DNA of 64,000 nucleotides from Candidatus Atabeyarchaeum deiterrae. Lineage in GTDB: Archaea; Asgardarchaeota; Atabeyarchaeia; Atabeyarchaeales; Atabeyarchaeaceae. The stretch's first letter is position 1, and every line of letters begins with the position of its first letter. The stretch is from contig CP147780.1 in assembly GCA_037310415.1 (NCBI GenBank), positions 224,001-288,000 on the forward strand, written 5' to 3'. Shown here one piece after another: positions 184 to 5,608 of the stretch. The notes beneath the pieces are model-generated. The model saw only the letters and a list, made by a program, of their open reading frames with translations. It was not told where the DNA came from and ran no database searches. A program made the position numbers and the translations under genes.

Positions 184-349
184 TAGTAGTCGACTAACCG
201 GCTAGCTTTTTAGTATTTATACTCCTTTTCCCAGAATAGCTATCTATCCGTATGCTTTGTAAGGACTCCATTGGCTAATGCGGGGACTTCATGAGATAGC
301 CAGCTACCTTTAAGAGGCTGTGACTAGTAATGAAGGAGGAACAATCCGA

Positions 350-1888
350 ATGAGTGACGTGAGACTCACAACTCAAAAACTATCAATCAGAGATGTTGTC
401 AGTGTTGCTCGTGGATTTGCCAAAGTGGAACTTTCCACCGAAGCCACAGAGAACGTCCAGAAAGCCCAGGCTACAGTTGAGAAAGCAGTTTCAGAAGGAA
501 GAATTGTCTATGGCGTTACCACTGGATTCGGAGCTCTGAGCGACAAGATCATTTCCAAGAAAGATGTGGAGAAACTACAGAGAAATCTCCTGCGCAGTCA
601 CGCTGCCGGTGTTGGCGAACCACTCGACACAGAGACAACTAGAGCGCTCATGATTCTCCGCGCCAATACGTTGGCAAGGGGCTACTCCGGCATTTCTTGT
701 GATACTCTTCAACTTCTTATCAGAATGCTGAACGCGCATATTCATCCAGTAGTTCCCGGAAAAGGTTCTGTTGGCGCAAGCGGTGATCTCGCTCCGCTAG
801 CACATATGGCGCTTGCCATGATTGGCGAGGGAAAAGTTGAGTACAAAGGTAGAATCATGCAATCTAATTGTGCTTTGAAGAAAGCTAGTTTAGATACTGC
901 CGCGCTCGGTCCTAAGGAAGGCTTAGCACTGATCAATGGATCGCAATTGATCACTGCGATAGGAGCGCTTACTGTCCATGATTCTGAGAATCTGCTAAAG
1001 ACCTCTCAGGTAGCGACAGCGATGTCGTTGGAAGCGATGAACGGAAGAGTTGAACCTTTCGATAAGAGGATCCATATGGTCAGGCCTCATGCCGGGCAGA
1101 TCGCTGTCGCGGAAAACATCTTGAAAATAGTTGAAGGTAGCTTAATACTCCATGAACCCAGCAACAAGAGAGTTCAAGATGCTTATTCATTGAGATGTTC
1201 GCCTCAGGTTATTGGCGCATCCAAAGATGCCATAGAATATGTTCGGCGGGTTGTCGAAGTTGAGATCAACTCTGCAACAGATAACCCGTTGGTCTTTGCA
1301 GAAGATGGTGAGATATTATCTGGTGGCAACTTCCATGGCCAACCCTTGGCAATCGCAATGGACCTTCTAGCTATTTCACTCTGTAACATTGGTAACATAT
1401 GCGAGCGGAGAATCGCCAGGCTAACCGACGAAAAACTAAGTGGAGGATTGCCTCCATTCTTGCTGAAGAAGAGCAGTGAGGAGGGAGTAAGTAGCGGATT
1501 CATGATAGCTCAGTGCACAGCTGCATCCCTCGCTGCCGAAAACAGGTGTTTATCCAATCCTTCGAGCGTAAACTCGATTCCGACTAGCGCCAACCAAGAG
1601 GATCATGTAAGTATGGGGGTCACAGCTGCAAGAAAAGCGAAGGAGATTCTGAAGAACACTGAACACGTCGTTGCTATTGAACTACTATGTGCAGCACAAG
1701 GACTTGAGTTTAGAGGCGTGAATAATGCCGGGATAGGAACACTAGAGGCATATCGACTGATTAGAAAAGTCGCGCCAAGCTTGGAAGAGGATACTGAATT
1801 GTCTCCACTAATAGAAGCCGTGGCTAGCTTGGTTCACAAGGCGGAACTTGTAGACGCCATTGAGAAAAAAGTAGGCAAGTTCAACTAA
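350..1888 (+). CDS. hutH: Histidine ammonia-lyase
   Basis: YGVTTGFG, the MIO-forming GSVGASGDLAPL, QDAYSLRC, GGNFHG and NQEDHVSMG motifs. ATG 350 follows GGAGG. Confidence 0.93.
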   Translation: MSDVRLTTQKLSIRDVVSVARGFAKVELSTEATENVQKAQATVEKAVSEGRIVYGVTTGFGALSDKIISKKDVEKLQRNLLRSHAAGVGEPLDTETTRALMILRANTLARGYSGISCDTLQLLIRMLNAHIHPVVPGKGSVGASGDLAPLAHMALAMIGEGKVEYKGRIMQSNCALKKASLDTAALGPKEGLALINGSQLITAIGALTVHDSENLLKTSQVATAMSLEAMNGRVEPFDKRIHMVRPHAGQIAVAENILKIVEGSLILHEPSNKRVQDAYSLRCSPQVIGASKDAIEYVRRVVEVEINSATDNPLVFAEDGEILSGGNFHGQPLAIAMDLLAISLCNIGNICERRIARLTDEKLSGGLPPFLLKKSSEEGVSSGFMIAQCTAASLAAENRCLSNPSSVNSIPTSANQEDHVSMGVTAARKAKEILKNTEHVVAIELLCAAQGLEFRGVNNAGIGTLEAYRLIRKVAPSLEEDTELSPLIEAVASLVHKAELVDAIEKKVGKFN

Positions 1889-1919
1889 CAGATCCTGCCT
1901 GTTTCATCCGAAAGAATAC

Positions 1920-3215
1920 TTATTCCACGATTCTCCCCTTTTCTGCCACCAACCTTCCTTTCTTGAAGACTTTTTCCGCCAAGTTAATGCCGTAGTGGTA
2001 CGGGAAATACCTGTGGTTGGGAGCGTCAAAAATGACTATATCCGCCATTTTTCCTTCTTCCAAAGTCCCCACCTCATGAGCTCGTTCTATTGAGTGAGCG
2101 GCATTGATTGTTGATGCCACAAGGGCCTCTTCTGTGGTCATTTTCATCTGCAGAACTGCAATGGTCATCATCATTTGCATCGATTCGCACATATCTGCTG
2201 CGCTTAGGTCAGTTCCCAATGCGACGGGCAATCCTGCGTTCATGATTTCTCTCGCCCTTGCATATGTGCCCAAATAGCAGAATGGAGTGGTCGGCAAGAA
2301 AGTGCCAATTATGCCCTTTTTTCTAAGGACTTCGATTTCCTCTGGGGGTGTAAAGATTAGATGGTCAGCTGAGATAACTCCCAACTCTGCCCCTAGTTTT
2401 GCTCCCCCGCTGTGGATAAGCCAGTCGGCATGAATTCTCAGCTTCATGCCATATTTCTTGCCAGTCTCAAGTATCCGCCTCGACTGTTCCACGTTGAAGT
2501 ATCCTTTCTCGCAGAAAACATCACAGTATTCGGCAAGTTTTCTCTTCGCGACTTCTGGGATCCATTTTCTGGCTATTTCATCTGTTAGCTGATCAACTTT
2601 GCCTTCGTACTCGAATGGAATTCCTTGGGCCATAAAAGTGGGGACAATGTCGATTGGATGCGCCTTATTGAGGGTCTTGATCATTTCCATCTGTCTGATT
2701 TCGCCTTGAAATGTCATTTCGTATCCGCTTTTCGCTTCTATCGTTGTCGTGCCGTGAATCAGCATCGTGTCAAGTATATGCGTAGTTCGTCTCAGCAGTT
2801 CCTCGGTGGAGGCCGCTCCTGTCTTCCTGAGAGTTGTTGGCATACCTCCTCCTTTGGCTTTGATTTCTAGGTACGGAATGCCTTTCACAGCCATTGCCTC
2901 AAGTTCTTCTTCTCTTGAGCCGGCGAAAACTAGGTGAACATGCGGGTCGATCAGCCCAGGTGTGACGAGTTTGCCGCTTGCATCTATGACTTCATATCCT
3001 TTCTCAAGTTTGTCTAAAACTTCCTTCGTAGTCCCAACAGCCATTATTTTTCCATCTTTGACTGCGACTGCTCCGTCTCTTATAATGCCAAGGTCGTTCA
3101 TTTCTTCTTTGATTTGGGGTCTGTCACTTTTCCCCTTCAGAGTGGTCAACTCATTTGCGTTGATTATTGTGAAATCAGCTTTCATTGCTTTGTCTTTCCC
3201 CTTTCTTGTTGACAA
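1920..3215 (-). CDS. hutI: Imidazolonepropionase-like amidohydrolase (divergent HutI)
   Basis: PGLIDPHVHLVFAGSR, GTTTIEAKSGY, DVFCEKGYF, SADHL and GTLEEGKMAD. Adjacent to hutH. Alternative start ATG 3185. Confidence 0.75.
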   Translation of the reverse strand: MSTRKGKDKAMKADFTIINANELTTLKGKSDRPQIKEEMNDLGIIRDGAVAVKDGKIMAVGTTKEVLDKLEKGYEVIDASGKLVTPGLIDPHVHLVFAGSREEELEAMAVKGIPYLEIKAKGGGMPTTLRKTGAASTEELLRRTTHILDTMLIHGTTTIEAKSGYEMTFQGEIRQMEMIKTLNKAHPIDIVPTFMAQGIPFEYEGKVDQLTDEIARKWIPEVAKRKLAEYCDVFCEKGYFNVEQSRRILETGKKYGMKLRIHADWLIHSGGAKLGAELGVISADHLIFTPPEEIEVLRKKGIIGTFLPTTPFCYLGTYARAREIMNAGLPVALGTDLSAADMCESMQMMMTIAVLQMKMTTEEALVASTINAAHSIERAHEVGTLEEGKMADIVIFDAPNHRYFPYHYGINLAEKVFKKGRLVAEKGRIVE

Positions 3216-4544
3216 CTAGACGTCTAGATACTTCTTTCTCTCCCACTCATGCACGGTGAAGCTGAATTCTTTCCACTCTTTGGTCTTGAGTTGCAGGAAT
3301 TTCTCGCTGAATGCCTCACCTAAGGCATCCTGCAGGTACTTGTCTTCAGAGAACTCACTTAACGCCTCCCCTAGATTTCCCGGAAGTACCTCTATACCTC
3401 TCTCAGTCCTTTGTTTTTCACTCATCTCATAGATGTCTTCCTCTACGGGCTCCGGAAGCGCGATTTTTCTTTTGATGCCATCCAATCCAGCGGCCAGAAT
3501 GCCAGCAAATGCAGTGTAGAAATTGCATGATCCATCCGTGGGTCTGTACTCCACCCTAGTTCTCATTTCTTTTCCAGGTGGGACCCTGATAAGAACTGAC
3601 CGATTATACTTTGCCCATGAAAGATATACTGGGGCTTCCCAGCCTGGTACGAGCCTCTTGTACGAGTTAACTGACGAGCTAGTCAGCGCTACCAGAGCCT
3701 TTGCATGACTCAAAATACCTGCTATGAAGTCCAAGGCTGTCTTGCTTAGACCATAGCTTCCTTTCGGGTCATAGAATAGGTTCTCAGACTTTTCGTCATC
3801 TGTGAGGCTAACATGAGTGTGGAGTCCACATCCATATCCATCATGGAAGGGTTTCGGCATGAAAGAAGCGACAAGACCCTTTCTGGCCGCAGTCATTTTC
3901 ACAACAAACTTAACCAAATAATTGATGTCAGCCATTCTCAATGCATCAGTGTAGACCAAGTTCAGCTCGTACTTTCCAGGAGGCACTTCGTGGTGATGTT
4001 TTTCAACCGTGATACCGCTGTTCCTAAGATTTTCAGTAATTTCAAGTCTTACATCAATGCCGAGGTCTGCTGGGGGACTGGCTAGAAATCCCCCTTCGTC
4101 ATATCGTTTGATGCTGCCGTCCTCGCCTTTCTTGAATAGGAAGTATTCTATCTCGCTGCACGCGTTATACTTGACAGTGCTCCCTAAGCTTTCCTTAGAA
4201 TCTTCCATAACTTTCTTAAGAACAAACCTCGGGTCAACCTCAAAAGGCCTATCTGATTCTGGCTCGTAAATGTCACATATTACTCTTGCCATTTTCTGAG
4301 CGAAGAGATTTGGCGGCAATATGACAAATGTGTCTACAACTGGCATCAGCTTCAAGTCGCTTTCGCTTATGTCCACCATATCGACAGATGAGCCGTCCAT
4401 GTGTATACCCTCTTCAGCCACCTTCGGAAAAAGGTCAGAAGGCACCCAAAGAGAGTGCAGGATACCAGATATGTCCGTAAACTGTAACGCAATCTCTTTC
4501 ACGTTCTCCTTCTTGACAATCTTTGCAATTTCTGATTCGCTCAT
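3216..4544 (-). CDS. glnA: Glutamine synthetase, type I-alpha-like
   Basis: DGSS, HHHEV, FMPKPF, NSYKRLVPGWEAP, NRSVLIRVP and EYR motifs. Abuts hutI. Confidence 0.85.
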   Translation of the reverse strand: MSESEIAKIVKKENVKEIALQFTDISGILHSLWVPSDLFPKVAEEGIHMDGSSVDMVDISESDLKLMPVVDTFVILPPNLFAQKMARVICDIYEPESDRPFEVDPRFVLKKVMEDSKESLGSTVKYNACSEIEYFLFKKGEDGSIKRYDEGGFLASPPADLGIDVRLEITENLRNSGITVEKHHHEVPPGKYELNLVYTDALRMADINYLVKFVVKMTAARKGLVASFMPKPFHDGYGCGLHTHVSLTDDEKSENLFYDPKGSYGLSKTALDFIAGILSHAKALVALTSSSVNSYKRLVPGWEAPVYLSWAKYNRSVLIRVPPGKEMRTRVEYRPTDGSCNFYTAFAGILAAGLDGIKRKIALPEPVEEDIYEMSEKQRTERGIEVLPGNLGEALSEFSEDKYLQDALGEAFSEKFLQLKTKEWKEFSFTVHEWERKKYLDV

Positions 4545-4693
4545 TCTAGTCCCTCTGAGAACATCGCCTCTCCTTCATCTTATATTACTTTCTTAGACGC
4601 GCGCAAATATCTAAGAGTAAGTTGTATAAATGCTTGGCAACGAGACTCATATTTAGTGAGAACTGATGATTCCGAGGATTGTGAGATTTCAAG

Positions 4694-5608
4694 ATGGAGT
4701 TTAAGGTTAATGGGGTACCGGTTGACGATACTTTCTGCGAGACCTTTACAGTACGCGTTGCTAGGATACTTGTGACGTCTGTCAATAGGAAGTGGGCCTT
4801 AGAATCAGCATTGGAAGCCAAAGGTCTTGGGAGATCGGCTACTATTCCACCTTGCGAAGCATCTATAGAGGCTGAGGCTAGAACTGAAGAGACTCCTGAC
4901 GGTAGACCAGGTTTCATAATTCAATTCATCGACAGGAAGATCGAGCAACTAAAAGAATGGTTCATAGTTCGAGTGAGAAAGGGTGTAGTGCCATACCCTA
5001 AGACCAACGTGTTTGATGCTCTGCCAGGGGAGACAGCCGAGGAGTTCTTGGATATCAGAGGCACAATCATACAGACCTTCGGAGATGGATTTGAAGAGGA
5101 AGTCGAAGCTTTTGGAAAACAGGTTTACAGAATACCAAGGATGGACGGGTATTTTCATATTCAGAATAGATTCGGAATTGCGAAAGGCGTGGCTGGCGGC
5201 ATGTTCATGATTCTTGCAGAGACGGATGAAGCAGCACTGAAAGCCGCCGAGCGAGCAACTGAAGGCGTGAAATCCATTCCATATGTTGTCGGTAAGTTTG
5301 CTGCCTCTGGAACCAAGGTTGGAGGAAAGAAGTACAAGGATGCTGTCGCTACCACCAACGACGCATACTGCCCGAGCCTAGCGGGAAGCGAAGGTAGCAT
5401 GATTTCTAAGGACGTGAAATGTGTATACGAAGTCATAGTAAGTGGATTGATGCTAGAGAATGTGACCAGGGCAATGAAAGTTGGCATACAAAACGCCACA
5501 AAGATACGAGGAGTGCTAAGAATAACCGCGTCCAACTACGGTGGAACACTCGGAAAAGGAAAAATCTTGCTTCGCGACCTATTCAACTCTGAGAATCAAG
5601 GGGCTTAA
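4694..5608 (+). CDS. ftr: Formylmethanofuran:H4MPT formyltransferase family protein (divergent Ftr)
   Basis: NGVPVDDTFCETF, TPDGRPG, FGDGFE, IPRMDG, GVAGG, TNDAYCPSL, YEVIVSGL and NYGGTLG. Confidence 0.82.
   Translation: MEFKVNGVPVDDTFCETFTVRVARILVTSVNRKWALESALEAKGLGRSATIPPCEASIEAEARTEETPDGRPGFIIQFIDRKIEQLKEWFIVRVRKGVVPYPKTNVFDALPGETAEEFLDIRGTIIQTFGDGFEEEVEAFGKQVYRIPRMDGYFHIQNRFGIAKGVAGGMFMILAETDEAALKAAERATEGVKSIPYVVGKFAASGTKVGGKKYKDAVATTNDAYCPSLAGSEGSMISKDVKCVYEVIVSGLMLENVTRAMKVGIQNATKIRGVLRITASNYGGTLGKGKILLRDLFNSENQGA

Follow-up and report, generated by a model that had tools for sequence, protein, structure and literature searches.

Histidine utilization (Hut) yields formiminoglutamate, whose one-carbon (C1) group is passed to folate by FTCD or released as formate or formamide. 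FtcD uses tetrahydrofolate. Ftr moves a formyl group between an amine carrier and tetrahydromethanopterin (H4MPT), and to our knowledge no pterin carrier other than H4MPT has been described for this family. Peptides are degraded anaerobically by Bathyarchaeia and Asgard archaea, both abundant groups. Here we describe FtrL, an Ftr-family paralog encoded beside histidine-catabolism genes in Candidatus Atabeyarchaeum deiterrae. Its gene lies at 4694–5608 on the plus strand of the window, by which we mean the whole stretch of 64,000 nucleotides that was analysed, positions 224001–288000 of a closed genome made up of a single 2,756,679-bp contig (CP147780.1, assembly GCA_037310415.1). Coordinates refer to the window unless stated otherwise. 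In this Asgard archaeon and in many Bathyarchaeia, histidine C1 units probably reach H4MPT via FtrL, by a route so far undescribed. In the literature searched, no work linked Ftr homologs with histidine, or formiminoglutamate with H4MPT.

Four described systems can be set beside FtrL. Ftr itself (EC 2.3.1.101; structures 1ftr, 2fhj, 1m5h and 1m5s) shares with it both Pfam domains, the two-lobe fold, ~40–43% identity, the glutamate at E246 and several motifs. FtrL differs in falling into a separate clade, in scoring below both NCBIfam cut-offs, in replacing GFGTS by GLGRS and RIGQC by RVRKG, in lacking the TPFP loop and in its added basic residues; in the loci compared it adjoins hutI and glnA and never fwd, mch or mtd. 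The transferase domain of FtcD (EC 2.1.2.5; PF07837, TIGR02024) has what we propose to be the same pathway job, occupies the same place beside hutI and shows a distribution in Asgard archaea that excludes that of FtrL. However, FtrL has no sequence relationship with it and comes with a dedicated glutamine synthetase (GS) and a dedicated HutI subtype. HutG, or HutF together with N-formylglutamate deformylase, removes the same C1 group from the HutI product, and a deformylase gene is paired with the Ftr-like relative P0123 described below; these enzymes release formamide or formate instead of carrier-bound C1, and none is encoded in this genome. FhcD (6s6y) is an Ftr homolog that serves catabolic C1 flow outside methanogenesis, with the same fold and an equivalent catalytic glutamate, Glu252 (PMC6926001). 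In FhcD the Ftr active-site residues are retained; it works with methylofuran and docks onto FhcABC (PMC6926001). The motifs of FtrL, in contrast, are altered, and no fhcABC-like genes were seen near FtrL.

Histidine genes and C1 carriers of the genome

The upper Hut pathway is complete in the genome, with hutH, hutU and hutI all encoded. The histidine ammonia-lyase gene hutH (320–1888, plus strand) matched TIGR01225 with 658 bits against a cut-off of 539, and also PF00221. The imidazolonepropionase gene hutI (1920–3215, minus strand) matched TIGR01224 with 399.5 bits against 298, and is abutted with zero gap by glnA (3216–4544, minus strand), a type I-alpha GS gene that reached 454 bits against 429 with TIGR00653. 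Both encode subtypes specific to this gene module, hereafter module HutI and module GS. FtrL is divergent from glnA across 149 bp (4545–4693) and matched both Ftr domains over its full length (PF01913, 130.5 bits; PF02741, 144.2 bits). The original prediction, made from the letters of the DNA and its translations, had described hutH, a hutI adjacent to glnA and a divergently transcribed Ftr homolog, and the open reading frames (ORFs) and family scores bear this out. It had also proposed a genome search for hutU, hutG, hutF and FTCD. This located hutU at genome positions 219081–220829, ~3.2 kb before the window start and with all three urocanase domains present, and none of the known last-step enzymes.

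That no hutG, hutF or ftcD lies in the cluster and no fwd or mch near the Ftr homolog, as first noted, proved correct, and the last-step genes are missing genome-wide as well. A profile search of the whole closed genome gave no match to FTCD_N or to FTCD_C, the cyclodeaminase domain. Neither the N-formylglutamate deformylase family (FGase) nor hutF was found in the whole closed genome, and an arginase-family search of it yielded no HutG: the sole arginase-family gene encodes an agmatinase, passing the cut-off for that enzyme (262 bits against 174) and falling short of the one for hutG (157 against 229). Because FtcD, HutG, HutF and the deformylase are all absent from the genome, HutH, HutU and HutI are left without a known last-step partner. 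FolD and formate-tetrahydrofolate ligase (FTHFS) were not found in the whole closed genome either, and the H4MPT enzymes mch, mtd and a canonical Ftr are present; H4MPT is thus the sole recognisable C1 carrier system.

The divergent intergenic region between glnA and FtrL contains two conserved TATA-like elements. CTTCTT(T)TATAT recurs near glnA across the 15 intergenic regions compared, and AGAyTTATAT recurs ~45 bp before the FtrL start across 15 loci; these were the sole shared elements seen in that comparison and are putative promoters. RNA contigs from one small wetland metatranscriptome cover parts of hutI (2547–2796) and glnA (3596–3778). FtrL, hutH and hutU had no cover in it, which is uninformative on absence since contigs only were available. 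A published supplement lists Atabeyarchaeia-2 transcripts for hutI (10) and hutH (3) (PMC11291895).

The interval between hutU and hutH (genome 221113–223321; L006:15113–17321) holds thiN fused to a helix-turn-helix (HTH) domain and a thiL-like gene. A 244-residue protein encoded between hutU and hutH had no family match. The order hutU-thiN-thiL-hypothetical-hutH is retained in Atabeyarchaeia-1 (L022).

Distribution of FtrL and FtcD and the conserved module

To compare the distribution of the two enzymes, 400 Asgard genomes were surveyed for FtrL, hutI and FTCD_N. Genes of the FtrL clade occurred in 11/400 genomes from four families, all with at least 68% identity and more than 480 bits, the next best match having 238 bits. 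The survey found hutI in 282 and FTCD_N in 241 of the 400. None of the 11 genomes with FtrL carried FTCD_N, against 241 of the 389 others. The two enzymes even separate within one family, where FTCD_N is present in all 15 genomes of genus g24, none of which has FtrL, and FtrL is present in all four genomes of genus g25, none of which has FTCD_N. The pattern of FtrL without FtcD recurs in four Asgard families and in Bathyarchaeia. In FtcD-type loci, ftcD (TIGR02024, 360–387 bits) is directly beside hutI, divergently so in L046 and L047, and L048 has the row hutU-ftcD-hutI. FtrL holds the same position beside hutI as ftcD does.

We then compared the neighbourhood of FtrL using 17 clade loci from species-representative genomes of Bathyarchaeia, one Heimdallarchaeota-labelled genome and Atabeyarchaeia-1. 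An all-against-all ORF comparison recovered only two conserved neighbours, glnA at 16/18 loci and hutI at 15/18, the gaps being contig ends. Indeed, both genes adjoin FtrL at every locus with sufficient flank, where hutI is 74–86% and glnA 63–86% identical. Loci with hutI, glnA and FtrL span Bathyarchaeia, the Heimdall-labelled genome, Atabeyarchaeia and two further Asgard families, so the co-occurrence of the clade with hut genes, which had been put forward as a check, holds in a neighbourhood conserved across two phyla. The module is linked to hutH in L015, L022, L049 and L050. L015 presents a co-directional row FtrL-glnA-hutI-hutU-hutH, and in L050 hutU-hutH-FtrL faces glnA-hutI. Somewhere in the genome, hutU is present in 14/17 FtrL genomes, and FTCD_N in 0/17.

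Two of these loci show features of their own. In L049 (6797–8665, genome G124), the hutH on the module side is one 623-codon open frame with two matching blocks ~96 codons apart, which suggests an insertion in the lyase. L011 (DATKLC010000087.1) is labelled as a Krumholzibacteriaceae bacterium and carries an archaeal hutI-glnA-FtrL module 78–85% identical to the Bathyarchaeia and Asgard copies; this contig is probably mis-binned.

More distant relatives have other hut links. Among 201 Bathyarchaeia genomes sampled, there were 2 core FtrL genes and 4 relatives of 56–58% identity, and all four relatives are divergently paired with hutU. P0123 (46% identical; L035:4786–6688) is divergently paired with a gene for N-formylglutamate deformylase, which matched TIGR02017 with 335 bits (cut-off 279). 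Taken together, the pairings of FtrL with hutI, of the 56–58% relatives with hutU and of P0123 with the deformylase tie three related lineages to three different hut genes. The P0123 pair could represent an Fhc-like route from formyl-pterin to formate with glutamate as carrier, or a branch point at N-formylglutamate. P0123 has the FtrL signature, and its contig looks bacterial (it carries Rho). At two of the hutU-paired loci (L052:4352–8314 and L054:3810–7705), genes for a mandelate-racemase/enolase-superfamily protein, a GS and an M24 Xaa-Pro-type peptidase come after the Ftr-like gene. The row looks like one for peptide and nitrogen scavenging; its GS is 42% identical to the module GS.

The two partners of FtrL are themselves distinct. 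Module HutI is 45% identical to Bacillus subtilis HutI (2bb0), keeps the metal ligands and is the only HutI in this genome. It has H154, Q197, W265 and SAA at the positions aligned to Y152, H185, E252 and NPG of B. subtilis. At least 14 of 15 module HutI sequences share these changes, from which three FtcD-linked Asgard HutI differ. Module GS is ~50% identical to the solved GS I-alpha structures 7tdp and 4lnf. Its motifs KPFH..[YF]G[CA]GLHTH, GWEAP and HHHEVPPGK are conserved across 15 module copies, whereas 10 further GS copies encoded in FtrL genomes lack them; module GS also has Y or F at the position of N264. Most FtrL genomes have 2–4 GS-family genes. In this genome module GS is the single PF00120 match, so here it must serve as the working glutamine synthetase too. 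The shared subtypes suggest that FtrL, HutI and GS of the module evolve as a unit.

FtrL within the Ftr family

The genome contains three Ftr-family genes. The canonical copy scored 415.6 bits with NF002554 and 394.2 with TIGR03119 and adjoins mtd, the gene for F420-dependent methylene-H4MPT dehydrogenase. Whether the genome held such a separate canonical ftr had been posed as a test of the prediction; it does, beside mtd, and mch is present as well. FtrL is 42% identical to this copy and fell below both NCBIfam Ftr cut-offs (NF002554, 294.7 against 297; TIGR03119, 286.0 against 292.6). Its sequence matched Ftr families only and falls outside the FtcD family (PF07837/TIGR02024). The predicted structure had a predicted local distance difference test (pLDDT) score of 94. 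Foldseek superposed it on 1ftr with a template modelling (TM) score of 0.92 and a root mean square deviation (rmsd) of 1.7, and VIA-align on 1m5s with a Z score of 38.5 and an rmsd of 1.5 over 292 aligned residues. Among the Foldseek and VIA-align matches listed there were no FtcD chains, but only Ftr chains and generic ferredoxin-like alpha/beta sandwiches.

Across Bathyarchaeia and four Asgard families, members of the FtrL clade are 67–84% identical. At the 90% identity level, more than 120 clusters are 72–84% identical to FtrL, the named ones coming from Bathyarchaeia, Njordarchaeota and Promethearchaeota. Among 50%-identity representatives the clade collapses to one entry, P0121 (74%), followed by P0122 (52%), P0123 (46%) and canonical Ftr (~40%). 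In a quick maximum-likelihood tree of 72 sequences, the FtrL core clade had very short internal branches and a support of 99 in the SH-like approximate likelihood-ratio test (SH-aLRT), with P0123 and then P0122 as its successive sisters (SH-aLRT 96 and 99). By this phylogeny FtrL lies outside canonical Ftr, in its own clade, as the original prediction had anticipated. P0122 was set aside as support for a hut link: its signature is partial, a GS gene is 5 kb away, and no hut gene lies within 8 kb.

The third Ftr paralog (G000:C1:155512–159006; L003:1042–2070, minus strand) scored 259 bits, below the cut-off, and is directly downstream of purD. More divergent than FtrL, it belongs to a different clade of 11 representatives (SH-aLRT 100). 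Its one informative relative (L056) is near the methanofuran-biosynthesis gene for 4HFCP synthase and not next to purD, so that the purD link is not conserved in this relative. Possibly the third paralog, too, is a non-canonical H4MPT formyltransferase, one that might serve purine synthesis.

FtrL retains the Ftr motifs TPDGRPG, TNDAYCP, VYE and NYGGTLG. The catalytic glutamate, Glu245 in M. kandleri Ftr, is kept as E246. This residue lies in VYEV, matches the VYE of 1ftr and 1m5h in the alignment and is near-invariant in the family. In contrast, GLGRSATIPPC and RVRKGVVPYP replace the canonical GF(G/A)TS..CP and R(I/V)(G/T)QC. All the kept and replaced motifs that had been quoted for the homolog at the outset are present. 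Every hut-linked lineage carries K43, L45, R47 and P52 (KGLGRSAT.PP) together with R95, K96 and G97 (RxRKG). These lineages also have in common that position 101 is aromatic, that 201 is K or R and that the TPFP loop is deleted. At the positions of the seven residues named first, which are among its best-conserved, canonical Ftr reads T, F, T, C, G, Q and C. Where canonical Ftr reads TPFPGG..SGSK, FtrL has the deleted loop and then GKFAASGTK, and two changes, GGN to GGM and SGSK to SGTK, are confined to the core FtrL clade. The FtrL motif changes are invariant in 10–11 of 11 clade members and rare among 26 canonical sequences. The signature thus tracks hut linkage and adds positive charge, with the catalytic glutamate and the fold retained. 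From this pattern we infer that one substrate site was rebuilt with added positive charge, which would suit a small dicarboxylate instead of methanofuran, while the catalytic centre was kept.

Proposed reaction and alternative explanations

What the analysis shows is the gene content, the synteny, the phylogeny, the complementary distribution, the predicted fold and the signature residues; in comparative-genomic terms these support the proposal that the paralog provides an H4MPT version of the last Hut step. It is likely that FtcD was displaced by FtrL acting as an H4MPT-dependent C1 transferase on formimino- or formyl-glutamate. Put in evolutionary terms, FtrL would, with comparable likelihood, be a neofunctionalised Ftr-family member that catalyses the final reaction of histidine catabolism in place of FtcD or HutG. 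We infer its donor and acceptor, the reaction direction and the part played by module GS as follows. HutH, HutU and module HutI would turn histidine into an N-C1-substituted glutamate, most likely N-formimino-L-glutamate. This compound would fill the FtrL site that corresponds to the formylmethanofuran site of Ftr, and FtrL would move the C1 group to N5 of H4MPT, freeing glutamate. The co-inherited GS would consume glutamate and ammonia; the recapture of ammonia by GS, part of the original prediction, is plausible.

Several points weigh against this proposal. No cyclodeaminase that would convert 5-formimino-H4MPT to methenyl-H4MPT was found in the genome by the FTCD_C search. Residues that ordinary HutI conserves are missing from module HutI, and the true donor may therefore be other than formiminoglutamate. 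FtrL is only 3–7 bits under the curated Ftr cut-offs, which makes activity on formylmethanofuran possible. The surveyed genomes are related, so that the counts of FTCD_N (0/11 with FtrL, 241/389 without) overstate independence. At the 18 core loci, hutU is within 10 kb in 4 and hutH in 3, and the metatranscriptome contigs cover hutI and glnA only.

The first two of these points bear on a possible but doubtful variant in which the donor is N-formyl-L-glutamate or another N-formyl product of module HutI, and in which ordinary Ftr chemistry would give 5-formyl-H4MPT. This is a sub-variant of the proposed C1 transfer to H4MPT and not an exclusive rival. Formyl transfer from an amide nitrogen is what Ftr chemistry is, the partner of the outgroup P0123 is a true N-formylglutamate deformylase, and the altered Y152, H185, E252 and NPG positions of module HutI hint at altered chemistry. 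Moreover, the formyl variant needs no cyclodeaminase, because Mch cyclises 5-formyl-H4MPT; Mch is present and a cyclodeaminase was not found in the genome. However, a HutF-type deiminase was not found in the genome either, module HutI scores above the HutI equivalog cut-off with its metal ligands intact, and there is no sign of it freeing ammonia or cleaving another bond of the ring. A more specific version seems unlikely. In it, ring opening of imidazolonepropionate by module HutI would yield an N-formyl product, whose formyl group FtrL would hand straight to H4MPT, leaving a glutamate derivative for module GS to process. If this co-evolved three-enzyme route with non-standard intermediates were true, it would be a fourth, carrier-conserving variant of histidine degradation and, in Asgard archaea and Bathyarchaeia, would couple the fermentation of amino acids to the archaeal Wood-Ljungdahl pathway.

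Two further explanations compete with the proposed reaction. That module HutI and module GS are both distinct subtypes with altered pocket residues, that strict conservation extends to the trio alone, with hutH and hutU often lying at other sites, and that most FtrL genomes have further GS copies would fit a role outside histidine catabolism, in which the trio acts on another imidazolone- or hydantoin-like compound, or on a nitrogen-regulated glutamate or glutamine derivative, and FtrL removes C1 from the product. We regard such a role as improbable: hutU occurs in 14/17 FtrL genomes, the trio stands within full hut rows in L015, L022 and L050, the second-tier relatives (56–58%) adjoin hutU, and module HutI and module GS are the only HutI and the only GS of this genome. 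Very improbable is a view of FtrL as an ordinary isoenzyme, a redundant formylmethanofuran:H4MPT formyltransferase of the Wood-Ljungdahl pathway whose neighbours would reflect co-regulation or chance. The common fold and catalytic glutamate, the scores near the Ftr cut-offs and the published tables, which assign K00672 of the Wood-Ljungdahl pathway to each of the three Ftr copies (PMC11291895), speak for it; the main text of the same Atabeyarchaeia paper mentions neither histidine nor Ftr (PMC11291895). Yet the genome has a canonical copy next to mtd, FtrL falls in a separate clade in which conserved motifs are replaced, its linkage to hutI and glnA is strict across phyla, FtrL and FtcD are mutually exclusive, and the sister lineages are tied to hutU and the deformylase.

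As currently reconstructed, the histidine pathway of these genomes ends without a last enzyme, and FtrL is counted as a Wood-Ljungdahl gene. K00672 and Ftr counts would overestimate Wood-Ljungdahl capacity wherever the FtrL clade occurs. If FtrL does transfer the histidine C1 group to H4MPT, it would be the first H4MPT-dependent counterpart of FtcD, and its donor the first Ftr-family substrate other than a furan coenzyme. Amino-acid carbon would then feed acetogenesis or C1 oxidation in these archaea without being lost as formate or formamide.

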